The translations under genes were made by a program, and so were the position numbers. The notes under the pieces were generated by a model. It worked only from the letters and a program-made list of their open reading frames with translations, did no database searches and had not been told where the DNA came from. Shown piece after piece: positions 1,225 to 23,811 of a DNA stretch of 64,000 nt. The stretch is taken from contig CM102283.1 in the NCBI GenBank assembly GCA_046563655.1, positions 5,642,001-5,706,000 of the forward strand. Direction: 5' to 3'. The number at the start of each line of letters is the position of its first letter. Within the stretch, counting starts at the first letter, position 1. The stretch comes from Yuukianura sp. NJ FZ-2021. Its lineage: Eukaryota.

Positions 1225-1496
1225 TGAAAACAGAGGCTACAACGCTCGAAATATATAGCATACAGAATTTATATTTTTAAATTTTCTTTTTAAATTCTTT
1301 ATTTTAAAAATTATTTTTTCATTTAAAAACAAGGTTAGGTTATGTTAGGTTTTTTTTTAATGGGAATAAATAAAAACTTGAGTTGATGAAAATCACGGAA
1401 ACTGAAATGTAAAGTTTAAATTGATAACTTATGCAATTCTACATAGGACCAGTACGGATACAGTTGCGATGATGGCGATCTCTGGTATCTCGTCTA

Positions 1497-3184
1497 TTAA
1501 ACCGCTTTCCGCACTTCGGGCACCCGAAGCCTGTTGGATCCCCCCTGTGAATTGCTTAAGTCGTGGCGATTGACGCTCTTCGGTGCGGTAAAAGTCGTTG
1601 AGCACTTTTGACATTTGTAGCGGCCGGTCGCTTCATCGACGATCAGCAGAGGATATTTTCGTCTTTTGACAATAGACTCCAATGGATCTCGTTCGTTTTC
1701 ACTGGCATCCAAAGGTGGATCAGCGCGACGTCCTTCGATGGTTCTCGATGTAGCAGAGGTTGACGGAAGAGCGACAGCGAGTGTTTCGACTGAAACTGGT
1801 TCTTCGAGTGGAGGTAACGGCGGGGCTATGTCTGGAGTGAGTGCACGATGCGTAGATGGGTCCAGGATGGTGGCACGTGGTGGAGAATCGGTTGACATGG
1901 CGACGGAGAGATCCAGAACTGGAAGCTGGTCGTTTGGACCAAATAAGCCAACTGCTGGAGGCTCCATTTGAACAGCTGCACCAGATAGAGCCTGTGTATA
2001 TGTCGACTGAAGTCGATCTATTGCCTTTTGCCTCTCTGCTGCCCTCTGCAATCCCTCCTGAAGACTACGAGACGATCCTGGCTGTGGGGATGCAAGAGGT
2101 TCTTGACGACGATTCAGAGAATTCAGACGATCAGGGGAAGATCGAAGATGTAAGAATCGCTGGATCAACGCCTCGTACGCTGTGCGTCGGATGACTTGAT
2201 TCGATTCGGTAGAAGCGGCTGAAATGACAGAAGAAGCAGCGACGTTGGTACTGATTGAATTTTGTTGTGTTAGCATCCGGGATGAATAAGATTTCATTTC
2301 TCGAAAAACCTCCTCCCATCTGTGATTTGCCAATTAAAGGTCATAGGGAAGTCCTTCTTCATTACGTTTTTCACATTCTGCTAAATAGTACCCTGCATCC
2401 ACGTTATACGCAGGGACATATACGAATCTGCAAAGAAAATAATAATAGTCACTGGAAAGACGGGCATCACAATGTACTAAAAAAACACGCGAAAATAAAC
2501 CCAGCCCAACCAACTTTTTTTTTTGAAAAAAAAAAAGCTTATTTAAAAAAAATAAGGGGCGAACTTACCTGTCGGAAACGTACAAAGGTCCGAAATCTAC
2601 TTGGTAGAACTCGTTGCCCTTTTTGTCCTGGACAATTTCTCTAATGCCGACGATATCGTACTCAATACCGTCGATTCCAACAATTCTAGTCCGCTTTAGT
2701 TGAGGTGGACGATAAGGCACAAGATCGTCAGGATCTGCAGGAAGTGACTCTTCGGACTCAGATGACTCACTTGAATCTGACGGTACCCAAATGTTCCCCT
2801 TTCGACGTCGATCCTACAAATCAGAAATTATTCACATGCAGAGATAGTTGAAACCGAGATGAACATAATACACGCTGACTGTTCTGTTAAGTTACCTTTG
2901 TCGAGGAACATCAACTCCTGGTTTTAACAGTGGGGACAACACGACGGCCACGACGCTATACATAAAATAATAATATTAATCTCTGATATTCTGTGTACTG
3001 TATTTACTAATCTTCATAAACACGCAAATCCGCTCAATATTCATAACAAAATAATATCTTCTTAATTTCTAACCAAAAACGAACAAAAGACACACACCTG
3101 ACATGAATCTGGCAAACGAACCTCACCGGCACCAGGAGCAACCTCGTTGATTATATAGGCAACCAAATCCACGCGAGATCTATG
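1497..3184 (-). pseudogene. Spliced chromodomain-like + C-terminal zinc-finger gene, disrupted; its first 13 codons lie at 18547-18509 on the other side of the LTR element
   Basis: Exons 3184-3098, 2955-2896, 2813-2569 and 2427-1497 join in phase through GT-AG introns. The translation contains EYDIVGIREIVQDKKGNEFYQVDFGPLYVSDRFVYVPAYNVDAGYYLAECEKR (chromo-like spacing) and YKCQKCSTTFTAPKSVNRH. In-frame stops at 2913-2911 and 2336-2334. Confidence 0.6.
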
Positions 3185-3189
3185 CTGTA

Positions 3190-4100
3190 TGTTAGTCTAC
3201 TCGGCGGCTAACATTCGGTCTAGGCAAGTCCTGTGTGGCGACTTACCTGAATTCTGGTGGTTCTTTCCTTCTGTCCCCGAAGCCTGTCTGCCACCGAAGT
3301 AGCCGATGGCTCTGAGGTGCTACTGTAGATGGAAGCTCGACTGTATATGATGTTATTATTGACGGTACAAAGTAACGATAAGACGTTAAGACAATAGGAA
3401 CGGTAAGATGTTGAAACAATAAGAACGGTAGTTGGTCATCTACCGAGAGACGAAGCTCTCTGGTCAGAAAGGGAATAAAGTTCACAGAACACAATAGCTT
3501 TGGTTGAGTTACTACTGTTTATTGTTAGTTGAAACACCCTACTCCAAGTGGAGACTTCACCGTGTTATTGTTCTAGAGTCGGAGTTCCGCACACCGGAAC
3601 TCCGACCCTTCGAGACTCTCAGTCTGGGCTTATTGTCCGAAGAACATATGGTTTGTAGACCTAACTATTGTTCTAATCAACTGTAACTAACTGCTAACTA
3701 CTAATGTAGTCTGTCCCTTGAAAGCTGAATACTGGATACTAACTAACTTAGACTAACTACTTACTGACTACTAAAAGGTAGACCCTTAGGATCTGACTCC
3801 TTAATTATGACTGACTCTAACAGAGGTGAATACAAGCTGCTTAAGGGTAAGATGACGCACAAGCTCACAAGAGCGTGCGTCATTGACTTGGATAGGTCCA
3901 CGTGTGTTCACGTGTTAGAACTATGTTACTGCCACGCATGCTACTGCCACTGCTACTGCGTCTTAGAGTTATGAATCATGCACACCTGCTAAGTTTAGGT
4001 TACTGCGACTTACTTATGCTACGACTTAACTTATGTTTAAGAGTTATGCGTCATAAGCGCATTAAAGTGTGAGTGAGATGACCCTGTCATAACGCTCACA
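3190..4100 (-). repeat. 3' LTR (911 bp)
   Basis: Near-identical to 17610-18508: about 8 substitutions and one 12-bp indel by eye. Abuts the PPT. Confidence 0.97.
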
Positions 4101-4112
4101 TACTCTTCTCAC
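4101..4112 (-). other. Polypurine tract
   Basis: Minus strand GTGAGAAGAGTA lies immediately before the TGTGAG start of the 3' LTR. Confidence 0.8.
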
Positions 4113-4174
4113 CACGGTGAAATTCCTGTCAAGGAATTTTGAATAGTTTTTTTTTTGCAAAACTAGATAGTTAC

Positions 4175-7100
4175 TCATTTTCTAGCCTGTCCTTTTTCAC
4201 CTTGTCTTGGGTAAGTTAGGCGTACAATGTCTCCTTTTGTGTAAAGTCTAGACATTCTGAATTTATTGTTGACTTCTTGCGTTTTTTGTTGTTGATCAGA
4301 TATGGCTGATCTGAGTTTTGACCATAAAGTTAGAATATTTTCTTGCTTAATGCGCAGATCTTTATTTTTAATTTCTTTTTGAAACGCATAAGGAAAATTT
4401 GGTTGTCGGTTAAATACCATTGAAAATGAAGAATGGTAATTCAAACTTTTCAAAGGCGTTGTGTTAATGCAAAAGTTAATCATAGGAATAAATTCGGACC
4501 AGTTTGAATGATTTTCGGTAACGTAATTTCTTATGATACTATGCCAAATTTGATGTGTCCTTTCTGACAACGAATTTCCTGTACTATTATAATACATTGT
4601 ATGTGTGATTTGTGTATCAAATATTTTTGAAAATGATTTCAAAAATTCAGACGCGTAATTAGAACCATTGTCAACATAATTGCGTTTTGGAGTTGAAAAT
4701 TTTAATAAAACTTCTTTTTCAAAAAAGTCTGCGATATCTTCTGCTTTTGTAGTTTTTAACGCTTTCAGAATGGTGTATTTAGTCATTAGGGAAACACAAT
4801 TAATTATATATTTGTAACCATTGCTTGAAGGCATAGGTCCACAGAGGTCACTTGCGCACACTTCCATTGGGTAGTTTCCAATTGGAAGTTTTCCTGCTAA
4901 TCCATGAATTTTGCCAAAGTGACGCTTTAATCTGTTACATTCGTCGCAGCTCTGAATGTGTTTAACTAAGTCTTGTTTTTGAGATGGCCAGGCAAACAGC
5001 CTTGACAATTTATTATAACATTTCGTATAACCGCAATGTCCGGAAATTGGAACGTTATGTATTTCATGTAGAATAGATTTGCGCTGCTGTTTAGGAACAA
5101 AAATTCTTGAATAGTTAAGTCTCATGTCGAACAAGATTCCATCTGTGATAACGTACCTTGCTCGTGTATGAATGTCATTTTTAATCCAGTTAGTTCTAAT
5201 TTTGACACATTCTTGATCTACTAACTGTAACGCAGCCCAATCTATTGTATTATCAACGTTATACCATTTTGTAAGTGTCTCCGGATTTTTAATAATGAAG
5301 CAAGCAATAAATAAGCAAGATGAACTGGCTTTCTGGTATTTCTATATCATTAGCTTCTTCTGAAAGAGGATCTCTACTTAGCATATCTGGAAGACCCATG
5401 TTTTTGCCTTTTTTATATTTAATTTCGTAATCGAAACCCATGAGGATTACTGACCATTTCGTTAACTCGTTATTCCAGCGTTTTGAAGGTGATAAAGCAT
5501 TCTTGGTTTGGACTAATGGTAATGAATCTGTTATGATTGTAAATTTAATGTCCATTAAATACAAATGAAAGACGGAACAACAAGTAACTATAGCAAATAA
5601 TTCTCTCATGAATGCTGGGTATTCTTTTTGTTTTCCTTTTAACAAAGATGAATGGTAAGCTATTGGAACTTCTAAGTTTTCATTCGTAGTTTGGAGCAAT
5701 GCTCCCCCTATACCGTAACCACTAGCGTCTGTATATAAGATTGTTGGTCTAGATTTGTCAAACCAATGTAATAATGGCGGTGACGTTAAAATTTCTTTGA
5801 TTTTGTCGATTTGTTGTTCGTGGATTTTTTCTAACTTGAACGCTTTATCTTTCTTTAGAAGTTCGTACAAAGGTTGCGTGAGTAAAGAAAAGTTAGGTAC
5901 ACTTCTTCTAAACCAATTAAATGATCCTAATAATCTTTGAAGTTTCTTAACTGACGTTGGATATGAAATTTGTTGAACTGCTTTCAATTTCTCTGGTTGT
6001 TGTCTAACTCCACTGGTACCTACCAGCATTCCTAATAGAGGTATTTCGGGATATCCGAAGTAGCATTTGTGAATAGCTAACTTTGCATTATATTCCCTTA
6101 ACTTCAAAAAAGTTTTTCGGATATCTTCTAAATGATTTTGCCATGTTCTGCTACTAAATCATCAATGTAAATTATATTATTTACCATTAGCGTTTCACCA
6201 AGAATCCAGTGGTAACAACGGGTAAAACTAGATGGCGCTGTACTAATTCCAAACGGTAAATACGTGAATGCAAAGTTCCCTTTCTGTGTAGAAAACGTTA
6301 AGTATTGGACGCTATCTTCTGCCATCTTAATACTCCAAAATCCTCTTTGTACATCACACATACTAAAGTAATTATGCCTATCTTGGATCCAATCCAAGAC
6401 AGCATCAACACTAATCATAGTGTATTCTACAGGTGCAATCATACTATTAAGTTTCACATAATTGATGCAAAATCTAAAAGTTTTTTCTCCATTTGGTAAA
6501 GTGTGTCCAGGGACTAGTACAGTCGACGACACATAATTTGAATTACATGGTACTATGCGACGTAGCTTTAGTAAGTCGTCAATCGTTTTGTTTTCGAATT
6601 CTGTCATCGCTGGCGTTCTTCTGGCTGGTTGGCACCGAAAAGTAGTTGCGTTTGGACGCAACACTACATGGTGGACGTAATTTTTGATTTCTCCTATCTC
6701 TCTCTTGTACGCAAAAACGTCTGTGAATGACTCTAATAATTGGCGCAAGTCGTCTTGTTTACTTTGTTCTAAATCTGGATTAATCCTTGCTAGGATTCTA
6801 TCCAGGTGTTCTTTACGTAAATTGGAAGGTAAATCGGAAAGTTTGAAAAGTAGGTAGGGTTTCATCTATTTCTGTTTGGTTTTGGTTATGTTCACCTTCA
6901 GTTAGCCCGATTGTGGCAATACTCTTTTCATAAAAACTGGGAGGCAAGACTTCTACCCAGTACTTTTTCGAAAAAGGTTTGTAAAATATATCATCGCCCT
7001 CTATAACGTATTCGCCTGCTATGAAGGGATCTTCCCGGGGACTCTGTTCATTAACAAGTCTATACTGATCTGAGAGAGGGACCAGTGTTTCAGTCAGACC

Positions 7101-8033
7101 AGCATATCCTGTTATAGTTTCATTATTATCATTTTCATCTGTCTGTGTGACAGGTTCTTCTGTAATTTCTATGTAATCATTATCATCCTTTGAATCTGTC
7201 CTTTTGACAGGCTTTGTAATTATATTTTCTAGATTTTGAACGTGTGAGCTCAGATTTTTAAAATCATTTTCTTCGATCCCCGTCGAGACAAAATTAGTGA
7301 TGTCTAAGCTCACATGATCAACAATATTGGATCCATCTGTATTATATATTTCATCATCTGGTTGAATGATTGTGTCATATCCTGCTAAGGTGAATACCTT
7401 GCAATTAATCTTCATGTTCTCTATTACTGTTGGAATTATTTTAATATTTTTTCCGTTCCAACTTATTAATTGACGACTAAAGTCAATTACTATGCCTTGG
7501 CAAACTAGGAAGTCGTTTCCTAGTAAGGCATCTAATGAAAAATTCTCAATTACCACCATCGTATGGCTAACTTCAATCTGGTGAATTTTAATTTTCACCT
7601 CGGACACTCCCAAAGATGAAACAGATGAATTCCCGATTCCTTTTAACGTTATACTATTTTCATTTTGAAAAATATTTTCAGATTTTACTAATTTATTATT
7701 AACTACTGAACATTCTGCGCCTGAATCTAAAATTATGCTAATTTGAAAACCATTTACGTAGCCAACCACCCGAAGCAATCCATTTCTCCCTATGCCACAT
7801 ACAATCTGATAACTATTAAAATTTTGAAAATTGGAAGTGATTATGTTTTGTAAATCTTGTGATGAATTATTTAGGATTGGAGAGGTGGAGTTTGGAAAGT
7901 TGTGTTCAACGAATTGACTAGAGGATTGACTGGGGTTTGATTCTCCTGATTGCGGCCCCGAGTCTGTTGTTGAATCGGATGGAAATTCGCCGCCATTCCC
8001 ATCCTCTCTCCATTTTTTGGTTGCATTCTGCAA
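4175..8033 (-). pseudogene. pol: pol polyprotein (protease, RT, RNase H, integrase), broken by at least three frameshifts
   Basis: PR ILDSGAECS...LLGNDFL (6813-8033). RT FRFCINYVKLN, LPFG, YIDD (6128-6865). RH YTDASGYGIG, RELFAI (5289-6107). INT H..GH..C..C and D,D(35)E (SDLCGP, VDNGSNY, SER) at 4175-5134. The integrase GPY/F tail is missing. Confidence 0.95.
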
Positions 8034-9541
8034 GTAGCGTTGCTATGTGTGTTGGAGTTATGTAGTGAACACCATTCTGCGTTCACTCTGTTAGATGGGT
8101 AGAAAGCTTGTCGATTTTGATTCTGTCCGAATCTTTTTTGATTGAATCTGTTTTGGTTTGCCGCAAAGCGATTCTCATTTCCTGTGAATCGGTTTTGATT
8201 TGGAGTAATTTAATTATGATTCGGTGTGAATCGATTCTGATTTTGTTGAAAGCAATTCGCGTCAGAATGTTCATTTGTTCTGTGAAAAGAACAAAACTGC
8301 TGCGGGCTATTTTGGGCCCTAGATGTTCTACAGTCCGCTGCTAGATGTCCTCTTCGGTTGCAAAGTGTGCAAGTAACATTTTTTGGGCATTGTGCGCTAA
8401 AATGTCCTGGCATGGAAGTGAAAACTGAAGGACAAGTGAAACAAACTCCAGTATTAGGATTTTGTGGTCTTGGTGTATCTTGTCTAATTTGATTTTGACG
8501 TAGCGGCTTTGAATAGCCACCAATTCTGGTATTCACTCCGAATTGTTCGGGAGTTGTGTAATCCGGCGAAGTAGGTATATTTTGTTCCTTATTTTGAATT
8601 TTTTCTGGGGTTTTTTGAACAATCATGACTTCCATACGGTTCATTCTTTCCTGGATGTCATTTATGACGTCTTTTTGTTCAAAAAGCTCTGCGGTAGCTT
8701 GTGTCATGACATTGACATCCTTCTGATGTAATAAGAGTTCATTGGTTTCTTCGATGCTCTTCATTGCTTTCAAAAATTCTGGGATTGTTTCTGGCTTTGT
8801 TGCTCCTAGAGCGCTGATGTTGGAAGGTCTTAAATTTCTAATAAGCCACCTAACTTGGCGGGCTTCAGTGATATTTGGATCCATTTGACGAAGTAAATCC
8901 GTCAGTTCATACACATATGTAGTTGCTGATTCATTCAACATCTGCTTCCTATTGATGACCTTTTGTTCGATGGCCATTGTACTGGATTGTCCAAAGGCCT
9001 TAATGAGTTCTCTTTTGAGTGTAGGATAACCTACCAGTAGTGACTGGCCAGGTGGTTTGTTTGAATCCAAAAATGAACAAAGCCAAGCTTCTGCAGTTCC
9101 AGTAAGAGAGGAACTCAGAATAATAGCCCATTCGGTTTGTGGAATTAAATTCCCAGTCATTGCAAATTGGTATTTAGCAATGAATCGCATGACATCTTCA
9201 TTGGTTTTTCCACTAAACGTCGGAATTTTGATTTTATAATTGATTTTTTGTGTAGGGGGTTTTGACCCCGGGATTGGCATTGCGCCTGATTCATCGCTAT
9301 CTTCTTTCAAACGTTTCTTAGAATTTTCTCCAGGATAGTAAGGTTTGAATAGGTATTCCTCTGGATAATTTGGACTTGTAGGAAGGGGTGGATAGACAGG
9401 AATCGTAATTCTATCTCTCTCCAAACCTTTTACAAGTGGGCTATGTCGTACGTTAATTGGAACCCCATTGTGTTTTTTGTCAACAACACTGTCTAGTGTG
9501 TTGTCTATGTCTTTCTGTTTACTTCTAGTATTCGTAGCCAT
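7871..9541 (-). pseudogene. gag: gag, one in-frame TAA at 8212-8210
   Basis: IPTFSG...LTGTAEAW...RKQMLNESATTY capsid-type motifs and knuckle CTLCNRRGHLAADC. ORF 7871-8086 is in the same frame as 8210-9541 and the interval is open. Confidence 0.9.
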
Positions 9542-12500
9542 TTTAATTGACCAATAAACTGTTAAAAAAAACTGTTTGTTAACAAAATAAAAGTCTTACC
9601 TTTAATTGACTTTCTCACGTAGATATGAACAGTGATTCCCCTTGGTTAAAGTTGACAGCTATTTTTACCACTTGGGTTGGGAACTAAAAGCTCTCTTCTT
9701 CTCCGATGTAGATGATAACGAAGGACCGACTCAACCAAACTCAAACTATCAATGTTTCCACTTTGGTTTTTTAAGAATTTTCGTTGATTTAAAAATATTG
9801 AAATTGAATAACGTTAAACAACACAAGTTGAAGTTAAAGTTTGATGGGTAGATTTCTTATTTAAAACTCAAATCAAGAAAAAAAATTTTTTTGAAAACAA
9901 TTTGTTCACCAAAAAATTTTTTTTGTTTTTAACGAATAGTGTTAGTAAGTCTTAACTGACACTAGAATCAAAATAAACTACCGTATTTATAGTAAAGTGC
10001 ACTCAGTTTGTCTTTTTTAAGGCATTTTAGTTCGCATTGATTTTGTTGACGAACCCTTTTCAATTGCGCAATTTTGTAACCAGTCATAGAGAATTTTAAC
10101 GTGTTTCTTTTTTGAAAAATGAATTTTTGTGTTATTTCTGAACACGCTAGTTCATTCCAAATAAAATGTATTGTAACTTCTCATGTACCTTCAACTCACC
10201 TGAAAAAACATAAAGTGAGGAGTTTTTACTTCTATTATTGATTATCAGTAAAAGATTACTAAACACATTTGAAGTGTACCAAGCTTTAAAATTTTGTTTT
10301 ATATCTTATTTTATGATCATAAGGTGCAGTATATTCTCGACAAAAAAAATAGATGAGTGTAATTGATACTCGTAAGTAGAGATTTAATCTGCGGAAATTC
10401 CAAAACGGATTAGAAATTTTCCTTTTAAACTACTCTTCTTTAGTAGCGCCTTTTTTCTAATTTGATTTTAGTTATTTTGCATTAATTAAAATATCCTTTA
10501 CTAAGATCTCTGATTGGGAATTCATTCTTAAAACCTGAATTTCTTTCAGTGACCTTGACAACGCCAAAATTATGGAACGTCTCTTATGGAACTTCTAAGT
10601 TTAAAACTCAGATTTTTAGAAAGCTCAACCTTGTTTCAAGTTATTTTTTGATGAAAACTTCGGAATAGAATCATTTATATTCCAATGTTTAATTTTATAT
10701 AAAAGTTATTGTAAACTTAGTGCCTTAATTCTGTGCGAATGTTCTTGTTTTACTCCTCAGCTATGATTTTTTGATTATTGAAAAATTTCGCTCACCTAGG
10801 GAAAGAAATTCCAAAAAGAATCGAATTCCGTGTCTTCAAAACTTTTTTACATTCCATCAAACGTATAACAGAACTGAAATTCTGGTGCTTTCCCTTCACA
10901 CTAGATAACTCGCCGTACTTGAAAATGAAGCTCTCCCAGTGTTCAGCCATCACTTAAACTTGCTAAACCTTCCAACAATTTCCACTTTCGACTTGCAAAA
11001 TTTCACTCTTTTCTTTTAAAGATTGCTGTCCGAAAATTGTTGCTATTTTTTTAGACAAATGTTTGGAGTCACCCGGAATATGTTTGTTACTTGGCTCAAC
11101 TACTCAAGTTGTTGTTAGGATCGTGACTGACTTTCTTTCTCGAATTGAAAGGCCTTTGGTGTTTCGAATTTTTTTTTCAGAAATGCTGACTTAGCGTGGG
11201 TGGGTGGACTTACGGGGTGCGCGTACCAATCAAAATTGAGCAGCAGTACTGAGGCCATGTGTTGGAATCGTGGTTTTTAGGATTCGCACTTTTTCCCATG
11301 TCAAAAGTTCAAGACATAGTCGTAAATCTCTTAATCTTCTGGCCTCAAAAAAATGCTTTTTCCTTATGGTGCCCATAAGGAATCCCAACGGTCACTTTTT
11401 GACAGATGTGACCTTTCCCTGATCCCGGATTTTAATTTTGCAAAATAAGAGAACAACAATTTTAATCTTAACTGGCCTTAACCAGTTTTAACTTTTAATA
11501 AAATTTTCTGAAAAAATTAATTTAAAAAATTTTCCATCTTTATTAGTTACCTATTCTACCTGAGCGATTGTATACTATATAGCTTTTGTGTCTGTCTGTC
11601 CGTCGGCCTGTCACTCATCAGATTATGAATTTTAATTTTAATTTTACCAAAAAATTTTAATAAAAACTACTTTGTTGTTGTATATGTCTGTCTGTTCGTC
11701 TGTCTGTCTGTCTGTATCTCTGACTACTTTTGATCATGAATATACTCAAATTCGAAAATGGGTTTAATTTAGTAGCTTTGACCTTGCTTATTTATTTCTC
11801 ATAAGAATATTCTAAAAATTATATGTGTTTGGGTCAAAGGTCAATAGTAACGTTTTCTTTCCTATATAAACATGGAATTTGACCAATACGAAAGTTGTTG
11901 GTCACAACTAATCAAGCATCCTTTGTATAGGTGTTTCCTATCTAAAGTTAAATGCTTCGTGGTCGAAACTAAGAATTTCGAAAATTAATTATTTTTAAAT
12001 TTTTATCACAATTTTGAATTTTCTGCTAAATTTCTTACTGTTCACATTAAGTTCAACTTATTCTGGCATATATTAAGTAAAAATTTAAATTATTAAGAGA
12101 TGAGTTATCTTTCAGTACTTATGGTACGTCGTTTTCAGTCAGCTGTTTCGTATTTCAAAATTTCGCGCAAAATTTTCAAAATTTTGGTTTTATTGATCAA
12201 AAACCCATCATTACGTTATTTGGTTATGACCCTTTCAGGTAATTGCAAGTTGAGTCATGTATTTTTCCAAAAAAGTTCAAAATTTTTGCACTTTTGGAAT
12301 TAGATTTTGGAAATACCGTTAATCTTCTTTTAGTGGTCGGTATGTTATGGGTAATGAATTCTAATGGTCCTTGCTTTGTTTACTTCTTGAAATGTTTATA
12401 AAATTGATGTTATAGCTAACTAATATTAAGTATAGTATTCTTATGATTTGTTCAAGTTAATTTGAACTTGAGTTTTTTAGTTTAAAAATACCGTAAATAT

Positions 12501-14598
12501 TCAATTTTTCATTCAATCAAAAAATCAATCAATCAATCAATCAATTCAATCAAAAAAGTGCTAATTTTTCTATAAAACTGGCTTGTCGTAAAGTGAATCC
12601 TACTTATATGCTGATAGCTAATACTTCTCTTTGAGAGTTTTGCGGTATTCGTGAAATTTACAGTTTTTCCTCTCTGTAAATTACGTTTATGAAATTTTTT
12701 TGTTCCAAACCTAATTGTTAGTGTAAGATTTAATGTAGTTAATCTACTTCCCTAGTAATTTTTTAGAAAAATTGATTTTGTTACTGGTTTAAATATGGGC
12801 AAAAGAATTACGTGCCATCGCCTAGTACAGGAAACTTTACGGTAAAATTTCGAAAAATTTGCAAAAATTCGGATTTTTTTTGACGGATTTTTATTTTTCG
12901 GTTATTTTGCTAACTTTTTCCTTGCTTTTCATCCAACAAAGTGGATTTTAAGCTTGAATATAATTTCGAAAAGAATTTCAAGCCAAGAACTTCCATCGTC
13001 ATAGATTTCACAAGTCAACTTCTTGTGCTGACTACCTTCGACTCGACTCTTGTTGACATTTGGCCTTCTATATGTTGTTTTTCCAGATTTGGCATCTGGA
13101 CAAATTTGTCTTGACCTCTGCCAACGCTATGCAGATTCCTGACCTACGTTTGCAAAACTTAGTGAGGGGGTGAGAGGACTATCTCTAATTTTTAAATTGT
13201 AAAATTTTTATTCTATTTAGAGTTCCGCTTCGAATTATTATTTTCACTCAGCTTTACGCCATTTACCTAAGTGGACCTTTAAAGGGCTCTTTCGAGACAG
13301 GTCCTTCTGTGACCTTTTGAAACAGCGGCCATAGTGAAAAAAAATTTTTTTTTACAATTTTGTGTACGATGTCATTTTTTCAAAGAATTTACGGTATTGA
13401 CCCTATTGTGATTTGAATTCTGTTTTAGAGTTTTGACCCAGCATTATAGCTACCTATTGTGAAGTGTCATAAAAATTCTTGGATCGTCTAAAAGGTGCTA
13501 AAAGTTCCGTTTAAGTGCCCCAAGTCTACCTGTTCAAGTCGAAGTCTCAAATCTGTTCGGTTCTTACAGACTAAAAAAGGACCCCTGGGGTTTTTGGAAA
13601 TTCACATCGGGATCATCGAGATAGTGAGTCTCTCAACCTGTTTTCCACTTTCTCTTTTTATATTATTGCCATGAGTGGGTTGTGGCAAGTTTCAAGCAGT
13701 GAACATTTCACAAGTCCCATTCCCATGCTTTCTCCTGTATTGAAAATTTTCTAAGTATTTTGGTCAAAGTTGACCTCTGACAACCTCAAAAACGATCCCT
13801 ATGAAAATTGTTGAGGGTCATGAGTGGAACATTTTTTGTTCTATAACGTACTACTCTGTGACCTTTCCCCGAGGTCACAGGTCAATCCAAAGAATTTTTC
13901 CGTCGCACTCTTTTAAGCTACTATAATGTCCCCTCAAAATCGGTTCAAATTCGAAGTTTGTTTTTACTGCACAAAAATACCTTAAGTGCAATAAAACTGC
14001 TGTGTGACTTTTAATTTTATTTTTTGTACTTAACTAAGTCTGAGTGAGAGTAATGAATCTGAATTATGATTTTTTCGTAAAATGCTAAAGATTTTCGTGA
14101 ATTTTGATTTCCAAGCATTAGTTAGAACGGTCATAATTCTGAAATTCAGAATTGTCTGTTATAACTTCATTTTTGTGTTTTCTTTTTACAGAGTGAAAGA
14201 TAACCTCAACTTGCACTTTAAAATCTTGAACTTGTCGATTTGCAAGTGTGTGCTTTTTGGGACCAGCTACTTCCGATTTATATAGTGAGTATTTAAGTAA
14301 AATTTTTGCAAATTTCTTACTTATGAAATTTTGGCTTTTCAAATTAAGCATTTCGTCAAGTCCTTTGTGACACAAAGTTATTTTACGTTGTTAACTGCTT
14401 CATGGAGATGCAGTTGGGGAATTTGTTAATCTATAATCTGCTGTTTCCAAAAAAAAAATTTTTTTTTTCAAATTTCAAATGTTTCTTGTAAAACATCTTT
14501 CTATTGGTTGCTTTCAGCCCTATAGTCAAGTATTAAGAAGCCCAGACACAACAACAAAAAAAAATTTTTTATTTTATAGTCCTACTTTTGTCTAAAGA

Positions 14599-15468
14599 AT
14601 GACAGAACGGGAGTTCAGTTCGTGTGAATTCACTCCTTATTCGGATTATAATTTTGAGTCTGCTTGTGGGTACTTCAATCGACTTATTTTACGTCATTTG
14701 CCTTTCTCCCTTGACATTGAGGAAGAAGAAAGGAGGGAATTATTTCAACATTTACCGCGATATTTTGAAAATGAAGAGGCCGCGGCTTACGAGCATCCCT
14801 TGTTCAACTTGCCGTATTGCGTTTGTAAACAAATTGCTTCTTATTTAAATTATGACGATGTTCTCAAAATAGCGCATTTCTTTCCAATTTTTCAACATTA
14901 TAATCAAACAAATTCAAACTTAGCTACCACTCAGGGTGAACTTTTTGATTTGGGGATGTCTAGTGACTTAGATGTTTATGGCCCTCCAGGTTTGTCGTAT
15001 GTTTCGCGCTGTTTGAGATCAATTGCCTTAGGCAGTTTTCCTATTTCAATTTTAGATTTCTTGTCATATACTCCTGATATTACTATTAATTTAAATTTTT
15101 TAGAAAATTTTATGGGATTATCTGATTTCCGAAAATTATTGTCAAATAGTCATGTTTGTCGGGGGAACGGGGCTAAGGACCGTTTGATTCATGTTACCTC
15201 AGTGCCTCGTTATGCTAGGTTAGAATATGATAACTATCGATTAGTATTAGCTATGATTAGACGTAATCGATTAGATTTAGCTGTTGATTTTATGGTTTCT
15301 GAACCATTTGGAAATGAGCTTCACTATGATTTTAACGAAATTTCATTATTTATCGTAATTTATGAGGCTATTATGCATCGTCGCTTAAGAGAACTTAGAA
15401 GGAGCGTTCTTGAATTTTTGAATCGGCCTTATACTGAGGAAGACTTAGAAAATGTTATAGTTATTTAA
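14599..15468 (+). CDS. Intact 289-aa antisense cargo ORF inside the LTR element, F-box-like motif
   Basis: Uninterrupted ATG-TAA in very AT-rich DNA. HPLFNLPYCVCKQIASYLNYDDVLKI matches F-box spacing (LxxLP...IxxYL..D...). AATAAA at ~15520. Confidence 0.75.
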   Translation: MTEREFSSCEFTPYSDYNFESACGYFNRLILRHLPFSLDIEEEERRELFQHLPRYFENEEAAAYEHPLFNLPYCVCKQIASYLNYDDVLKIAHFFPIFQHYNQTNSNLATTQGELFDLGMSSDLDVYGPPGLSYVSRCLRSIALGSFPISILDFLSYTPDITINLNFLENFMGLSDFRKLLSNSHVCRGNGAKDRLIHVTSVPRYARLEYDNYRLVLAMIRRNRLDLAVDFMVSEPFGNELHYDFNEISLFIVIYEAIMHRRLRELRRSVLEFLNRPYTEEDLENVIVI

Positions 15469-15774
15469 TGTAATCATACATATTTTGTAAAATTTCCTAT
15501 AGGAGCAATCAATTTTTGAAATAAAATCAGTTAGTTATTGTTTATGAATTTAGCGCTTTGTAATTTTTTAGAAAGTTTTGGATTTTTCTGTCGTCTGTTT
15601 TTCTGAATATGCAACCAATCTCTTGTGATGTAAAAATAGTATGGAACTTTACATGTACGTACGTACACTAATGTACAGAATTTTTATTATTTTTATTTAA
15701 AAATAGTAACTTTTTATTTTCAGTTTTTAATTTTTCAATTTTTTGTTTGAATTTTCTTGATAGATTTTAAAATC

Positions 15775-17339
15775 ATGGGAAGACATAGAAAAGTTCCTCG
15801 GAAATCAGTTCCTCGGAAAATCAGGCGTCATTCCGATTCTCGTGTTAACCAGTCTCCATGTTCTACCTCTACACGTTCTAGTACAATCACTTCCTCGATT
15901 TCTGTTCCTTTAAAACGTTTGCCACTCCGTACTAACTTGACTAAATCATCCACTACTATTACTGTTTCGGGCTCTCCTATTTCTTCCATTTCTAAATCTG
16001 CAAACAGCGTTTTTTGGAAAGTAGGAAAATGACACTAACGACGACTTGGTTTACTATCGGTGTGACTTTCTGGCTGGAAATACTGTTCTGTTCATTTAAC
16101 AAATGTAAAAAAAGCGAAATTGCGACAAAGGCTATACTCCCATAAGAAAAGGAGTCTCAAAAAAAGATCCTCGCTCCCTCCTTCCCTCATTGAGAAAAGA
16201 GGGAGTTTCCTTCCTGACACCTGGTCTTTCCAAAAACTATTCGAAATTAGAGTTTGCGCGGCAAGCACATGTTAACATCGTTAAATTATTGTACAAATTA
16301 CTCCAATGATAATGGAATACTACAATAAATCTGCATAAATTACTTTTAGAGTTGATTTAATTGTGCGTCCAACAATTTAATCGTTGCAACATGTGCTTGC
16401 CGCGCAACATCTAATTTCAGAGGTTTTTCGGAAAGGCCAGGTGTCAGGAAAGAAGTTCCCTCTTTTCTCAATGACGGAGAGAGGAAACAAGGATCTTTTT
16501 TTGTGACATTTTTTTCTTATGGGAGTATAACCTTTGTCGCAATTTGGCTTTTTTTACATTTGTTAAATGAACGGAACAGTAACTCAACACCTGAAATTTT
16601 AGGTGTTCCTAAATTTCTTGATTATGGTCTTCCTGGCTACCTACGTTGTGAAAAGATTCATGTTCCTGGAAATTTTTATTGTGGTGCTTGTGAGTCGGAA
16701 TTTTACGCTCGTACTCGTAGTGTTCTCAAGCGGGATGTAGGAAGTATGGCTTCTTCTCCGCTGATTTTTACATCGAATGACCCCTGGGTCACGCATGTTA
16801 ACGAAAAACATTTGAAACAAGTTCGTGTTCGACAACCATGCGGGTGTAATAGACTAGCCGGAGTGGCTCTAAATGAGTTACATCGCTATTCCTGTATATC
16901 GCCTTGCCTGTGTGGCCTCAAAGTTACCACAGTAAGTATTTTTAAGATATTATGCGCAAATCACCTCTATATCTGCAAAATATTTACTTGGATTTTCTAA
17001 TTCATTTTTCCCAGGTCAAAGAAAAAGAAGATCACTGCCTCAATTCGAGAAATCCCTCGATCAAGAAACGCGGTTGTTATTACGATTCCACTTGTGGGAA
17101 ATATTTCCCCACCCAAATGAAATTATACACGCACTTAAAAAATAAGTGCACTCGTTGTCACCTATGTCAGGAGATCATAGATAGTTCAGTAGAAACTAGA
17201 ACTGAACAATCAGTGCTTCTATTGTTCCTTTTGTGGTACTCCACAAGACTCCCGGGAAGCCATGCACAATTGCGCCTTAAGTTGTCTGCGACGCGTTGTG
17301 TACGTCAACCAAAATGAATGTGAGCCCAGGCCTTCTTGA
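15775..17339 (+). pseudogene. Antisense spliced Cys/His-rich (zinc-finger-like) cargo gene, interrupted by a MITE
   Basis: Basic/Ser-rich N-terminus, then a 1-nt shift in the A-run at ~16030. The frame is restored across the MITE (…CDFLAGN|NSTPEILG…). Phase-0 GTAAGT…CCCAG intron 16932-17014 joins two ORFs. Contains CGKYFPTQMKLYTHLKNKCTRCHLC and a shifted CFYCSFC tail. Confidence 0.65.
16083..16579. mobile_element. Foldback MITE with ~200-bp imperfect inverted arms, TA target duplication (Tc1/mariner-type)
   Basis: TA|CTGTTCTGTTCATTTAACAAATG… mirrors …CATTTGTTAAATGAACGGAACAG|TA. Removing it plus one TA restores the flanking reading frame. Confidence 0.9.
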
Positions 17340-17588
17340 TTTAAAATTTTGTTTTATGATTTGGAACTATTTTATTATGTTTAGTGGAAACATTAGTTGA
17401 GTTTGGTTCGAGTACTTATGTAAGTTGTTTAGCTTACAAGTTGAATTGACTCTAGTTATAATTCTTATTGGTGCATAATTTTGAAATTCCCTATTGTACT
17501 TTGTGCTTCATTACTATATTAAAAAAAATTTTGTTTTTACTTACCTTATTGTAGCTTCTGACAATAATTTTCAAGTAGCGAAGAAGGA

Positions 17589-17606
17589 ATCCGGTTCGAA
17601 GGACCA
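17589..17606 (-). other. Primer-binding site, tRNA-Tyr type
   Basis: Minus strand TGGTCCTTCGAACCGGAT, 3 nt inside the 5' LTR, is complementary to the ...CCGGCTCGAAGGACCA 3' end of eukaryotic tRNA-Tyr (one mismatch). Confidence 0.85.
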
Positions 17607-17609
17607 AAT

Positions 17610-18508
17610 TGTTAGTCTACTCGGCGGCTAACATTCGGTCTAGGCAAGTCCTGTGTGGCGACTTACCTGAATTCTGGTGGTTCTTTCCTTCTGTCCCCGA
17701 AGCCTGTCTGCCACCGAAGTAGCCGATGGCTCTGAGGTGCTACTGTAGATGGAAGCTCGACTGTATATGATGTTATCATTGACGGTACAACGTAACGATA
17801 AGACGTTAAGACAATAGGAACGGTAAGATGTTGAAACAATAAGAACGGTAGTTGGTCATCTACCGAGAGACGAAGCTCTCTGGTCAGAATGGGAATAAAG
17901 TTCACAGAACACAATAGCTTTGGTTGAGTTACTACTGTTTATTGTTAGTTGAAACACCCTACTCCAAGTGGAGACTTCACCGTGTTATTGTTCTAGAGTC
18001 GGAGTTCCGCACACCGGAACTCCGACCCTTCGAGACTCTCAGTCTGGGCTTATTGTCCGAAGAACATATTGTTTGTAGACCTAACTATTGTTCTAGTCAA
18101 CTGTAACTAACTGCTAACTACTAATGTAGTCTGTCCCTTGAAAGCTGAATACTGGATACTAACTAACTTAGACTAACTACTTACTGACTACTAAAAGGTA
18201 GACCCTTAGGATCTGACTCCTTAATTATGACTGACTCTAACAGAGGTGAATACAAGCTGCTTAAGGGTAAGATGACGCACAAGCTCACAAGAGCGTGCGT
18301 CATTGACTTGGATAGGTCCACGTGTGTTCACGTGTTAGAACTATGTTACTGCCACGTAGGCTACTGCGTCTTAGAGTTATGAATCATGCACACCTGCAAA
18401 GTTTAGGTTACTGCGACTTACTTATGCTACGACTTAACTTATGTTTAAGAGTTATGCGTCATAAGCGCATTAAAGTGTGAGTGAGATGACCCTGTCATAA
18501 CGCTCACA
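17610..18508 (-). repeat. 5' LTR (899 bp)
   Basis: Direct repeat of 3190-4100; followed on the minus strand by the PBS. Confidence 0.97.
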
Positions 18509-18765
18509 CTGTACAACTGGCGCTGATTCGCAAAAAATCTTTACCATTGTAACTTTTTTTATTGATAACTCAAAAACTATTACAAAAAACAACCACGAAA
18601 GACTCAAACAACCAAAACACTAAAACTCAAATCCAAACTTTCCACCCTTCCCGCCAACTGGGAGGAAGGGACACCACGCCATCCTCTTATCCACACGAGA
18701 AGGGGTGAAGAAACAGCACAACACAGAACAATAGCGATTAATCGATCCAAAAAAAATCAATAATC

Positions 18766-19897
18766 TCATAAGAGTAGTCCACATAGTCTGCTAACTAACA
18801 GCACACATAAGCACGCCACTAAAAATCCAACAAACGCTACACACAATTTTTCAAAACTTTCCACCCTCCCACCAAAATCAAAATCCACCCTAGAATCCTC
18901 CCCTCTGAAGAAGAGGACGCCACGCCATCCTCTTATCCACACGAGATAGGGCGAGGGCACACTCCAATCCAAAACAATAGTGTCTAATCGATCAATAAAT
19001 TCACCGTTCTGATGGACATAGTCTACTAACTCAGAAGCAACTAAAAGTTTCTCCCCTTTCAGTATATCCTTCTTTGCTACCACCTTCACGACTGCCTTTC
19101 CATGCCTAGTACCTTTCAGGAAAATTATGTATTGCTTTTCCTGGTTACAAGTGTGATTGATGAAGGGTGCGATGTTTCCACGCGTAGTACCATCGACAAA
19201 CAGACGTTCCTCATCACGACTGACCGAATTTCCAAGTGACGTTACAAGCGACGTGAATAACTTGACTGAGCTATACGCAGAATCGAAAAACATAAATTTT
19301 TAACATTAATTCACTTTTAAAAAAATAAAAAAAACGCTATAAAACCAATATACATTTCATTAGACAAAGACAACTTATCAGTAGTTAGACTCAGTTTGGT
19401 TTGTAGATCGATAACTTGTCCAGCGTACAAAAACAAGAAATCTCCGGCAGATAAGTTCCGCATTGCTTTCAAGCCCAGCCCACCTACTGTTTCCTCATAA
19501 TAGCAATAACAGGAGTTCACTAGGTCCGCTTTTCCCCAGGTCACGATTTGATCATCATAATATACTCCACTAGTTGGTGTAAATCTAGTTCGTAGATTGT
19601 TCAACATAGGGAAGACAGCAGTATCGTCTTTGTAATACGGAAAACCGAACTTATTCATCTGAAAGACGTGAGACATTATGGATCTATATAGAATGTTATG
19701 AATAATTCAACGGATTCGGTATTTTATAATACTCACCACGAATTAATCTCACACAGCTAGAAACATAGGACAACCCTGGTGGGCTATATACATCTAAGTC
19801 GCTGGACATCCCTTGATCAAAAAATTTACCTTGAGTAGTGGCTACGTTTAAATTAGACTGATTATAATGGCAAATCGAACAAGGGGTGCTCGTAAGC
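18766..19897 (-). pseudogene. SET-domain gene with F-box-ORF-related N-terminus, spliced and decayed
   Basis: SET motifs GGLGLKAMRNLSAGDFLFLYAGQVI, VDGTTRGNIAPFINHTC and VVAKKDILKGEKL. An in-phase GT-AG intron at 19353-19271 joins the two SET halves. A second candidate intron (19736-19684) is out of phase. The N-terminus is homologous to 14785-15025. Confidence 0.8.
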
Positions 19898-20332
19898 GTT
19901 AGGTAGGCACATAGAGTATCAGGACCCACCCCATCTTCTCCCTCCTCACCTAAAGGACCAGACCACCCTGTTCCTCCTCACATAAGGAGCAACCCCCCTC
20001 TCCCTCCCGTCCTCCATCTTCTTTCTCATTGTTCTGGCCGCCATCTTGCTCTTTCCCTCGTCCTGACGCCATTTTGTTTATTACAATGGCCACCACTTTT
20101 TTTGTTTTTTTATTGGATGGGTGTACGTGGACATCGATGGACAAGGTAGTTCTGGACTGCACAGAATGGAGCAACATTCTGCTTTAAGTTTTGATTTATT
20201 CTCATATTATTTTCTTGCATGGGTGAATGTAAGTATCGATGGACATGTCAAAGGTCAAGGTCGTTCTGTTCCATGGTCATGTCAAGAGTCTAGGTCGTTC
20301 TAGCCGTGTGTAAAGTTTTTTAGCGGCTCGCT

Positions 20333-20760
20333 CATTGGGTTGTCCGCCTCCACTGATATTTGTCGCGAATCCAGGAAAACTGCAACTCCGTGTCCTGTGG
20401 CTCCGTATTAGGCCATACCTCTGTATAAGACACTGTATTGTCGATTGGAATCTGTGGTTCAACGGGAGTCGGGCATTCGATTCCAGCATGGGCTCTTTTG
20501 CAATGGCGTTTGTATTCGCATTGGTTTTTATACCAGTGTGAGCATCCTGTATGTTTACATTCCTTCTTTGGCTGAAAGGCACAAGATAGGAAATGCCAAG
20601 CAAGAGAATAAACATTTAAAACGTACTGTCACTAACCTTGCCGGCGGGCCGGCATTTCCGCTCCGCTTCGAATGCTTTGTTCGTAGATGAAAATACTAGT
20701 TGTTGGACCCCCAAGTAAATCAGTCGTCACAGTCTAGACATTTCACTTTGTTGGGCTCAC
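20333..20760 (-). pseudogene. Decayed spliced zinc-finger gene (BED-like plus C2H2)
   Basis: Frames absent from the ORF track read KVKCLDCDD*FTWGSNN*YFHLRTKH (two stops) and, after an intron-like gap, PKKECKHTGCSHWYKNQCEYKRHCKRAH. Confidence 0.6.
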
Positions 20761-20841
20761 CTGAAATTAAAATTGATACAGATTAATACTTTAAGTCTTC
20801 TCTAGCAACACATTTTTGTCAGTCTGCGTTTATATTTCAAC

Positions 20842-21741
20842 ATGGAAACTTCTCGTGCTCCCACTAAACTACATTCTACCGGTACTTCCAGCGATACAGT
20901 ACACATTGATTGTGAAACGATACTCTATGGCGAAGAATTGCGTCCGTCAAAGTTTCTACTATATAATTCTGAAGTCGTTGACCTCATTGACGATGGTCGT
21001 GCTTTTGGTCATTGGTTCCGCAAGGAAAAATCCGCTTTTCCTCTTGAAACTTGTTCGGCACTGCATAGCCTTTTGATTACAACATCAATAAATGCGAGGC
21101 TTATGGAGGCCAGACTGAACTCTAGGATTATGGACATGGCGGGCATTGCATCTTATATGCATGGCTGTGAAAATGCGCTGGTCTTGTGCCCAAATTCTGT
21201 CATACTCATAATGTCAAGCGCACTTGCAAAATTTGGATTTCCAGAAAAGGAGACTGGAGTCTTCCAACGTGTCAACAACATTCGCTCTTTCAGTGACGAG
21301 AAACTGGAGATATATGAGCAGTTTAAAGTTCTGAATAACGTGGCCACATTGGATTCCATGATTGATCATTTTAAATTGTATTTTGTGCTTCCAGAAAATC
21401 TGCAAAGTGTGCTCAACAGCAAGTTGGAAACGAATAGAAAAGTTTCGATTGTAATTGTGATTCACTACAACCTTCTTCCAACCCATCAGGTACATCTAAT
21501 ATATGAAAGATTCAAGGAAAGGTTGGTTTTCATTGGTCATCCGGCGCATCGAAAAATAATGGACGATTGGCAATTTCAAGTTGATAAGTGTGACCCCGTA
21601 AGCATAAGAATGTGTGCTACTCGTGTGCAGCAAGTGCTAAGAAGCTGGACAATTCTGGTTGGGACTCTAGCGATTCAGTCTTGTGTTGGCAGTAGAAGTA
21701 ATAGGTTGTTGAAATGGCAAAAACCCAGGATTCTCAATTAG
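20842..21741 (+). CDS. 299-aa ORF of unknown function
   Basis: Long intact ATG-initiated ORF with globular-looking composition. It overlaps the integrase start by 28 bp. No family recognised. Confidence 0.55.
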   Translation: METSRAPTKLHSTGTSSDTVHIDCETILYGEELRPSKFLLYNSEVVDLIDDGRAFGHWFRKEKSAFPLETCSALHSLLITTSINARLMEARLNSRIMDMAGIASYMHGCENALVLCPNSVILIMSSALAKFGFPEKETGVFQRVNNIRSFSDEKLEIYEQFKVLNNVATLDSMIDHFKLYFVLPENLQSVLNSKLETNRKVSIVIVIHYNLLPTHQVHLIYERFKERLVFIGHPAHRKIMDDWQFQVDKCDPVSIRMCATRVQQVLRSWTILVGTLAIQSCVGSRSNRLLKWQKPRILN

Positions 21742-22333
21742 AAAAGGATTATACGACTCAGACACAGAGTGTGAGTTTTGCTGGCCTGCCTACCACTTTC
21801 TTGCGTGCGACAAAGCAAAAAAGTGACAAACAGGCTAGAGAAGAACTTCAGTCGATCCCAAGCTATAGTTTATTTCGTAAAGCGAGGCAAAGGTTTCCTA
21901 CGCGGAAAACGATTGTTCCCACGCTTCATTTTAGTTATGGAGCAGACTTGATGTCAGTCCAAAATGTTAGGACTGACTGTAGTTAACATGTAAACAAAGG
22001 AGTTCAGTGCATTCTACTTGTTGTGGACTTGGTTTCGCGTGTTCTTAACACGGCGCTACTCAAAACAAAAAACCAGCATCACGTAGAGGCTGGACTACGT
22101 AGCTGCTTCACTGCCATGGGCCAGTATCCAAAGTTTCTATTGGTAGACCAGGTGTTGGCATTACTTTTTTTTTATCCTCAAGGCTACTTTTAGAGTCTAC
22201 TGAGTCTACTAAAAGCTGATTCTCTTAGGGTGGCGAATTTTACAACAAAACTGTCGAGAGTCTGTTGAAGAAGCAGCGTTTGTGAGCGTCTTAACCAAAC
22301 GCTGAGGTTAAAGCTGAGCCGAATTAGTAGCTA
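21714..22333 (+). pseudogene. Polinton/Maverick-type DDE integrase, intron-containing, degraded
   Basis: LEKDY…SFAG…YSLFRKARQRFPTRKTIV…YGADL…NKGVQCILLVVDLVSR…LKTK…PKFLLVDQ|GGEFYNK…CERLNQTL. In-frame TAA at 21984. Phase-0 GT-AG intron 22152-22228. Deletion and frameshift before the catalytic Glu. Confidence 0.8.
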
Positions 22334-23231
22334 GATAGAAATAGAACGGACTTTTGTGACTAGCCCGGTCCAAAGTCCATTTGCAAAATCGGACAGCTGC
22401 ACAATATCCTTCAATGCCAGATTAATTAATAGCAATTAAGCCTAATTAATTTTTTCTACAAGACTAATTAAGCCTTTAATTGGTCATTTCCGGTCTCCGA
22501 CCATTTCCGAAACCACAATTAAATTCTATCCCGCCAAAACCCATCAGCGAAAACCTTCGCGCCAAATTTAAACTTTTTTTTCCTTTCAGAGAAAAAACTC
22601 TCCCGCTAAAACACTGCTTACTTGGATGTGCTTTTTGAAGTGATTCAAAAGAAAAACTTTGTCTGAAAACCTCTTCCAGAAAATATCCTCAACATCAGTT
22701 TATTTTCAATTTTGGAATTCTGAGAAAATAAGATGGAGTATTAGAAATAAAAATAGAAGGTTTCCTCGTAACGATCTTCATGCCAATCTCTATCGCGTTC
22801 ACTCATTGACTTGAGTAAGGGAAGCTGTCTATTTTCTAGCAGACTCCATGGCTTTGCGATTTGATACAACAAATGTTCCGTAATGAATGCAACCAATGTC
22901 GCTGAGCTTCTGACTTTTTTTTATAGCAATTAGAGCGTCCATGTCCACAGTAATTGGACGATTGGCGTTTGCCATTAGCTTTCGAGCAAAACCCTCCCAG
23001 TTTTGACTGTAAAATGGCTGCATTCCAGCCAACAAGGGAAGAAACACGCCCTCCTATTTTTTAAAAATTAGCAACAAGAAAATATTTATACAAATTCCAA
23101 TTGAAAAAAAATTGAGTTACTACTTACCGTTCCAACATATGTGGCCTGAGCCAACGGCAAATCTTTGGATGGCATCATGCTAGCACCGGCTAACTCCATG
23201 ATGCTACTATTTCCGTCCAGAGTTGGCGTTA

Positions 23232-23811
23232 AGGCTATTTCGCACTTACAATGAACGTGGCAGCGATATTGCTGTACATCGAAATTGGCATCAAAATTGG
23301 TAGTGTGAAATACAAATTTTCATGCCACCAATATTGGTGCAAACCTTGCGCCAATATTGCTGCTGCACTTTTCTGGATTCGATTTTCGAATCCGAAAAGG
23401 TGCTGCAGGAAAATTGCCGTTCTATGATTGGCTCACATTGTTCCCGCTCACAATTCAAATTGTGAAACCGAGTTTCGTCTCAAGTTGTTTCCACTTCTGT
23501 CACTTATCATTTGAAACTCGGATTCCAATAACGAAAATAACTAACTCATGTTAATTAGTAAGGAACTAATTAACGTTCTAAGTAAGTTGACGAATAAAAG
23601 TCATAATAATTAAACACTATTTGATTCATTCTAAGAATAACGTCCCAAATAATTGTTTAACTTATTCGCCTCGTCCCATATGTTTTGTGGCAATATTGCT
23701 GTCATTCAAATTGGTAGTGTGAACGATCACCCAAATTCAGTGACTTTGAAATTGGCCAATGAAAATGCCAGGAATATTGTTGGCACGTTCATTGTAAGTG
23801 CGAAATAGGCT
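23232..23811. mobile_element. MITE, PIF/Harbinger-type (TTA target duplication)
   Basis: ~40-bp TIRs AGGCTATTTCGCACTTACAATGAACGTG / CACGTTCATTGTAAGTGCGAAATAGGCT, flanked by TTA on both sides. Confidence 0.85.

Follow-up and report, generated by a model that had tools for sequence, protein, structure and literature searches.

Within a 64,000-nucleotide stretch of DNA from Yuukianura sp. NJ FZ-2021 (assembly GCA_046563655.1, contig CM102283.1, positions 5,642,001 to 5,706,000; hereafter the window), a long terminal repeat (LTR) retrotransposon of the Ty3/gypsy type interrupts a run of genes and gene fragments. With the retrotransposon taken out in silico, the run consists of 1497-3189 joined to 18509-22333 and measures 5518 bp, in agreement with the ~5.5 kb given in an earlier annotation made from the letters alone (the original prediction). 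It contains a SET-domain gene, zinc-finger pseudogenes, an intact open reading frame (ORF) of 299 codons and the 5' part (~187 codons) of an integrase gene. The original prediction suggested that five genes of the run might form one large DNA element with a chromatin toolkit. We propose that remnants of separate origin make up the 5.5-kb run, which would be a mosaic in repeat-rich animal DNA and not one mobile element; to this reading we assign a probability of roughly 0.6. The mosaic would be made up of a dead integrase gene of the Polinton/Maverick type, of which the 5' part is left, broken off where a dispersed repeat begins; the intact 299-codon ORF directly upstream of it; a decayed zinc-finger gene; one copy of a SET-domain gene from a lineage-specific, multi-copy family, with its 3' end in a dispersed repeat; a 160-bp fragment, itself with a deletion, of an ORF that belongs to the local giant gypsy family; and a decayed low-complexity/zinc-finger gene. 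In a later step the 15.3-kb Ty3/gypsy element, whose LTRs are still 98% alike, would have inserted between the fourth and the sixth of these parts. The pieces would have arrived independently, and they are not likely to work as a unit. The features are listed below with the evidence used to call them.

1439-2813, minus strand: decayed low-complexity/zinc-finger gene (translation, splice signals)
3190-18508, minus strand: Ty3/gypsy LTR retrotransposon, 15.3 kb (LTRs, target-site duplication, Pfam domains)
14596-15468, plus strand: intact 290-codon ORF inside the LTR element and antisense to it (ORF list, homology to the flank fragment)
18766-19706, minus strand: SET-domain gene copy, exons ~19354-19706 and 18766-19270 with a short GT-AG intron, e.g. 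19271-19353
19741-19897, minus strand: fragment of the LTR-internal 290-codon ORF, formerly "F-box-like" (blastn, tblastx, translation)
20277-20760, minus strand: decayed zinc-finger gene (three-frame translation)
20842-21741, plus strand: intact 299-codon "orphan" ORF (311-codon stop-to-stop frame)
21714-22285, plus strand: Polinton/Maverick-type integrase pseudogene fragment (HMMER relatives, alignment, tblastn)
22277-22433, no strand assigned: dispersed repeat (summed contig depth, diverged same-sample contigs)

Several observations speak for the mosaic: no terminal inverted repeats (TIRs), hallmark genes or further integrase were found in the searches described below, repeats stand between the pieces, and one of the pieces is LTR-derived. 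Stops or frame changes are present in three of the genes, and the Chromo, BED and F-box labels proposed for the neighbours found no support. The data behind all copy-number statements are contigs of three DNA runs from one sample, compared with the window as pieces at least 80% alike, so that statements on other loci are indirect; they refer to the contig pieces listed (308 further pieces lie outside this list). Dispersed repeats occupy 18510-19031, 20079-20392 and 22277-22433, between the pieces of the run, and each is covered by many diverged contigs; at the last of them the summed contig depth is 401, against ~80-125 in neighbouring bins.

The integrase fragment is read in two exons, 21714-22151 and 22229-22282 followed by a stop, which are separated by a putative GT-AG intron of 77 nt (22152-22228, phase 0) placed after ...LLVDQ at 22151. 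The codons beyond this interval read GGEFYNK, its removal restores the family motif TDxGxEF, and the frame stops 18 codons further on. An in-frame TAA at 21984-21986 is covered without difference by one same-sample contig. What is left corresponds to about residues 1-187 of a family of 300-375 amino acids (aa); both catalytic Asp residues are kept, and the integrase is dead because the catalytic Glu and the C-terminal domains, which belong beyond the truncation, are absent. With the third catalytic residue and those domains gone, catalysis of integration by this protein is impossible. The dispersed repeat starts at ~22277, where the integrase reading ends. When the 64-kb window was searched by tblastn with 57 relatives of at least 280 aa, integrase was detected at 21714-22322 only, apart from weak matches to the gypsy integrase, and no further piece was found elsewhere. 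A contig from run X2 links 21725 directly to 21858, omitting 132 nt (a multiple of three) of the N-terminal integrase region, and perhaps represents an allele or a second copy.

A HMMER search of 1.84 billion representatives, made with X at the in-frame stop of the fragment, returned 188 relatives at E<=1e-3, the best of them 51% and 49% identical. The fragment itself gave no Pfam match, rve included, and no word-search match among longer proteins; it aligns to the first ~150 residues of the long relatives (300-375 aa). In an alignment of 27 rows (A1; the window fragment and 26 relatives), D81, D108, K122 and D148 are invariant, D81 and D148 being the catalytic Asp residues, and the N-terminal pattern Y..P...F.G ... 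YTLH.P.R..F.RR is conserved. The rve domain is present in every row except the fragment's (26 of 27), Chromo in six and H2C2 (Integrase_H2C2 or zf-H2C2) in none, and the first ~75 columns hold no conserved Cys or His. According to PMC2836005, the H2C2 finger is present in gypsy, Ginger1 and Ginger2 and absent from Polinton/Maverick integrases, and the family resembles the latter in this respect.

Full-length relatives were used in two further comparisons, which were run on them and not on the window fragment. The Atlas clusters nearest P0003, the closest full-length relative, are of the rve+Chromo type (0.96-0.97), with Chromo in 15-61% of the members of the nearest clusters, and one of them, labelled "F54H12.3 transposon-derived" (a C. 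elegans protein), is 63% viral with Preplasmiviricota as its commonest phylum. Many Polinton/Maverick integrases carry a C-terminal chromodomain; the integrase in the window ends upstream of where its relatives carry Chromo. For the structural model of the relative P0044 (predicted local distance difference test score, pLDDT, 90.3), the best fold matches are the integrases of "MELD virus sp." (E 7e-18) and mavirus (E 9e-17), with retroviral Pol ranking behind both. From the lack of H2C2, the Atlas clusters and the P0044 fold matches, the classification as a Polinton/Maverick (c-integrase) type stands and is supported, its Atlas and fold basis being the relatives; the original prediction had named the same type, and the 188 HMMER relatives, the rve core of the relatives and their Preplasmiviricota kin agree with it. 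The likeness to Polintons/Mavericks (endogenous polintoviruses) extends to a C-terminal SH3-like part in the relatives, with a chromodomain in a subset. The locus differs from them in keeping the first half of the integrase only, in the intron within it, and in that no pPolB, ATPase, protease, capsid gene, TIRs or recognizable ends were found in the parts scanned.

It is very improbable that the fragment came from a cut-and-paste transposon of the Ginger2/TDD or GingerRoot type. Like the window's gene, Ginger1, Ginger2/TDD and GingerRoot encode an integrase-like DDE protein and no polymerase; such transposases lack pPolB, some of the elements are 3-7 kb in size (PMC2836005 and PMC6839031), and introns occur in some of the transposase genes (PMC2836005). 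However, the H2C2 finger of Ginger1 and Ginger2 (PMC2836005) and the YPYY and GPY/F motifs of Ginger1 are all absent from the window's family, and the count of 0/27 for H2C2 is matched by the lack of conserved N-terminal Cys and His. The Chromo domains in 6/27 members, the MELD-virus and mavirus fold matches, the largely viral Atlas cluster and the lack of TIRs near the fragment also argue against a Ginger-type origin.

Scans of the viral_contigs collection with single proteins (P0044, P0020 and P0003) gave nothing. On one metagenome contig (L001) the relative P0018 (2194-3159) lies ~1.4 kb from an ORF at 4548-5099 with weak adenain (adenovirus protease)/Ulp1 matches (E 0.004-0.006, below the cut-off), which adjoins a 445-codon ORF; two neighbouring ORFs had no match in PDB. 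L001 is possibly a Polinton-like element. No match was obtained when the window proteins were compared by tblastn with this contig and two others (L001-L003).

The integrase intron called in the original prediction is apparent in the window and seems to be common to some of the relatives, so that it is no peculiarity of this locus. Among the 150 best relatives, 76 are shorter than 200 aa, and in eight of the 150 the homology breaks off one residue past the second catalytic Asp, where the sequence goes on with V (a GTN codon). These eight come from metagenomes (P0001, P0005, P0014, P0019, P0023, P0026, P0050 and P0126), and the common break-off followed by V suggests that the gene callers entered an intron at the same place. 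A quick, unfinished tree was built from 142 rows, with ten matches shorter than 125 aa (P0026 included) omitted and the window's gypsy integrase added. In it the window fragment groups with P0001 and P0002 (Shimodaira-Hasegawa-like approximate likelihood ratio test, SH-aLRT, 88), and six of the eight intron-labelled rows (seven relatives and the window fragment) fall in one 18-row clade (SH-aLRT 92). The intron label needs five changes on the tree against a mean of 7.9 after shuffling, and 0/500 shuffles were as low. There would seem to be a sub-lineage of Polinton-type integrase genes that have an intron in common directly behind the second catalytic Asp; this sub-lineage is the more useful by-product of the analysis.

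The 299-codon orphan was correctly described as intact: its 311-codon stop-to-stop frame was reached in 0/200 block shuffles of the window, the largest frame obtained being 216 codons. Its final 28 nt are shared with the start of the integrase, which is read in a different frame. No relatives were found among 431 word-search candidates or in viral_contigs, Pfam gave nothing above chance, and phmmer against PDB gave chance-level rows only. A single-sequence AlphaFold2 (AF2) model had a pLDDT of 30.5 and was unusable. The Atlas neighbours are short N-terminal lobes of SNF2/ResIII/DEAD proteins (0.89-0.90, 151 shared features), a weak lead. Inspection by eye suggests motifs Ia and III of the SNF2 type together with degenerate forms of motifs I (P-loop) and II; such an inspection is not a test. 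That the orphan is a leftover of the integrase's own element is a tentative suggestion, to which we give somewhat less than even odds.

The SET-domain gene on the minus strand was rightly labelled. Pfam SET matches 18766-19299 with 27.1 bits against a cut-off of 22.4, and the two exons match, in the expected order, the halves of MLL-type SET domains in PDB (E 0.23 and 0.0044). Splicing is predicted: with any of several possible GT-AG introns of 83-125 nt removed, the reading frame is uninterrupted between 19706 and 18766. The alignment to MLL-type SET ends at "GEKLL", and the residues that follow do not show the ELxF/YDY motif, the catalytic C-terminal motif of SET domains; from ~19031 downwards the 3' end lies in a dispersed repeat that is also duplicated locally. 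Exon 1 had no word-search match among longer proteins. Three diverged paralogue contigs are about 83% alike to the gene (17-38 differences over 104-209 nt), and two of them have 102 or 108 different letters where the window has the intron, which indicates a multi-copy family with a conserved intron position.

These results bear on a further explanation, in which the run is a decaying host cluster of fast-evolving, lineage-specific genes for nuclear proteins that includes a once-domesticated, intron-bearing c-integrase. The SET paralogues, which preserve the exons and not the intron, the intact orphan, and the intron position apparently common to 8/150 relatives (with 6/8 labelled rows in one clade of the quick tree) are all consistent with it. 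On the other hand, the integrase is dead by both stop and truncation, stops or frame changes mark three of its neighbours, no relatives of the orphan or of SET exon 1 were found in the protein collection, and introns also occur in mobile integrase genes, Ginger1 transposase genes having one to four (PMC2836005). We regard a host cluster as quite improbable.

The remaining minus-strand pieces fared differently from the labels they had been given. The piece called "F-box-like" derives from the LTR element: 19741-19869 is 81% identical in DNA to 14896-15024, and 19868-19897 matches 14785-14814, so the flank fragment is without 14815-14895 (81 nt), the F-box-like core, and changes frame at the junction. 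The ORF at 14596-15468 represents the source family of this fragment, and it alone gave a Pfam F-box match, at residues 69-92 with E=0.51 and 10.8 bits against a cut-off of 20.5, which does not uphold the label. Besides this 129-bp piece and local tandem repeats, self-blastn and tblastx detected no paralogy inside the window. In the gene at 20277-20760, a C-x2-C...H-x4-H finger with two in-frame stops lies at ~20650-20749 on the minus strand, and an open 98-codon exon (20332-20628) has a C-x4-C-x12-H-x4-H finger. Neither zf-BED, zf-C2H2 nor any other Pfam family was found on 20332-20628, and the proposed "BED/C2H2" identity comes down to Cys/His spacing judged by eye. The 3' part of the gene overlaps the dispersed repeat at 20079-20392.

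On the left side of the LTR element, the first visible exon of the gene at 1439-2813 (2569-2813) has no start codon and is followed by a GT-AG interval (2320-2568) and a long low-complexity exon; two tandem C2H2/C2HC fingers at ~1439-1560 on the minus strand are split by a frame change. The gene has no Pfam family, and the exon 2565-2813, used as the Pfam query, had no Chromo match up to E=10. The spliced product scored -2 bits against a purpose-built hidden Markov model (HMM) made from eight integrase chromodomains, which does not set it apart from 500 shuffles, and the "chromodomain-like" label did not survive. Three of the four labels of the supposed chromatin toolkit failed profile tests in this way. 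The statement that every gene except the orphan has stops or frameshifts was right for three genes with stops or frame changes; it does not extend to the SET part, which is open after splicing. An 18-bp unit forms a tandem array in 14 registers at 918-1258, just left of the run.

A single mobile element would be expected to have ends and further genes of its own. Polinton TIRs measure 100-1500 bp (PMC10748475), and Polintons/Mavericks have 6-bp target duplications and AG..TC termini (PMC6839031). No inverted repeats bracketing the run or the orphan-integrase pair were found, and self-blastn of the window gave none: the best inverted matches between left and right are 20-25 nt long (E at least 0.28), other pairs elsewhere are 18-24 nt, and nothing resembles a Polinton TIR, a lone TIR being unrecognizable had the right half been lost. 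Neither six-frame Pfam scans of 1-1502 and 22300-28703 nor the ORFs of the run yielded a pPolB, ATPase, protease (adenain-like) or capsid family; for capsid genes the test is weak, as Pfam may be without a Polinton capsid model. No polymerase family was detected in the run ORFs or in the rest of the window, which was checked by way of 20 further stop-to-stop ORFs picked by eye. The remark in the original prediction that pPolB, ATPase and capsid genes are missing holds in the flanks scanned as well. The contig pieces listed over 20393-22276 each differ from the window at 0-5 positions, and none of them is a second, diverged copy of the orphan-integrase part. With no TIRs, hallmark genes or diverged copies found in these searches, the proposal of five genes in one large element is unsupported rather than refuted.

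There are points that weigh against a mosaic and for an element. The genes are tightly packed and diverge around a gap of ~80 bp (20760-20842), the orphan and the integrase start overlap as in compact elements, and several of the neighbours suggest roles in chromatin or DNA binding (SET by profile, fingers by eye, the SNF2-like lead of the orphan). The copy-number evidence is weak, coming from one-sample contigs in which paralogues of less than 80% identity are invisible. The geometry of the run is also that of nematode Mavericks, where, according to the preprint by Widen et al. (bioRxiv 10.1101/2022.07.12.499685), cargo stands beside the integrase.

These points lead to the explanation that the run represents the left arm of a Maverick/Polinton-like element after truncation, with the left end first, then cargo (the SET and zinc-finger genes and the orphan) and then the integrase, while pPolB, capsid, ATPase, protease and the right TIR were lost at a break near 22285. 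Cargo picked up from the host would account for both introns and SET paralogues. The evidence bears out the integrase type; the same preprint describes intron-bearing cargo beside the integrase, so that in both cases a few kb of intron-bearing non-core genes adjoin it; and the minus-strand genes of the run point away from the integrase towards the presumed end, as the 3' end of the cargo gene in the preprint faces the TIR. Yet in nematode Mavericks, as described there, the cargo is made up of WASP proteases or KRMA kinases and is enclosed in complete, multi-copy elements with TIRs at their ends and intronless core genes, whereas the window run shows no element ends, its genes are mostly decayed, the link between genes and integrase is hypothetical and the integrase has an intron. 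In addition, the flanks scanned contain no TIR, target duplication or other core gene, one of the "cargo" pieces is a fragmentary ORF of the LTR-element family, repeats separate the pieces, no diverged second orphan-integrase copy is among the contig pieces listed, and the host is not established as a nematode. We consider the truncated arm unlikely. Somewhat less likely again is its fuller form, an arm of a Maverick/Polinton-like animal element whose cargo comprises SET and zinc-finger proteins and an orphan that is perhaps a dead SNF2-like lobe, with an integrase lineage that has a conserved spliceosomal intron. If that form were true, Maverick cargo (proteases, kinases) would be extended to chromatin factors, and the locus would point to counter-silencing by an endogenous DNA virus; and if the genes moved with the integrase, the locus would bear on endogenous DNA viruses versus host silencing and on horizontal transfer of host genes. 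The anatomy of the run, the integrase family, the SET paralogy and the source of the F-box-like piece are shown; the independent arrival of the pieces is inferred. Read as a mosaic, the locus is ordinary: a dead Polinton-type integrase remnant together with decayed or duplicated genes, split by a young giant gypsy element.

The Ty3/gypsy element interrupts the run and is not itself part of it. Its LTRs (3190-4100 and 17610-18508) are 98.0% identical over 911 aligned columns in self-blastn, form the only long direct repeat, and start with TGTTAG and finish with CTCACA (TG..CA ends). The 5-bp target-site duplication CTGTA at 3185-3189 and 18509-18513 indicates a single insertion of one 15.3-kb element. 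The gag-pol region on the minus strand (9595-4175) contains, by Pfam, Retrotrans_gag, zf-CCHC, an aspartyl protease, RVT_1, RT_RNaseH, Integrase_H2C2 and rve. The element agrees with Ty3/gypsy elements in its LTRs, its 5-bp duplication and the order gag, protease, reverse transcriptase, RNase H and integrase, the last with H2C2. It differs from them in an unusual AT-rich gap of ~8 kb (9600-17609) between the 5' LTR and gag and in the antisense ORFs found there; zinc-finger-like ORFs are located at 16356-17317 within it. This stretch could belong to a giant LTR element with accessory ORFs or be the result of nested insertions. A palindrome of ~500 bp (16081-16581, arms 16081-16294 and 16367-16581, 80-96% complementary) lies inside the element and overlaps the start of the ORF 16356-17000; it has the look of a miniature inverted-repeat transposable element (MITE) or a hairpin-forming sequence.

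Rfam and tRNA scans of the window gave no matches. The one match in the flank scans was a retroelement integrase C-terminus at ~28381-28525 (Integrase_p58_C, E 6e-7). The intact ORF of 732 codons that comes next (28740-30938) has no Pfam family and is possibly the env-like gene of another retroelement. Further to the right are a catalase gene on the minus strand (40520-41698, Pfam Catalase, E 7e-90) and a DGCR8-like gene (44701-45927) with a double-stranded RNA-binding domain (dsRBD) exon; these two genes indicate that the window is animal DNA and that ordinary host genes lie within 20 kb of the run. The catalase region (39918-41698) has two large exons and an intron of ~100 nt with a TTTTAG end.

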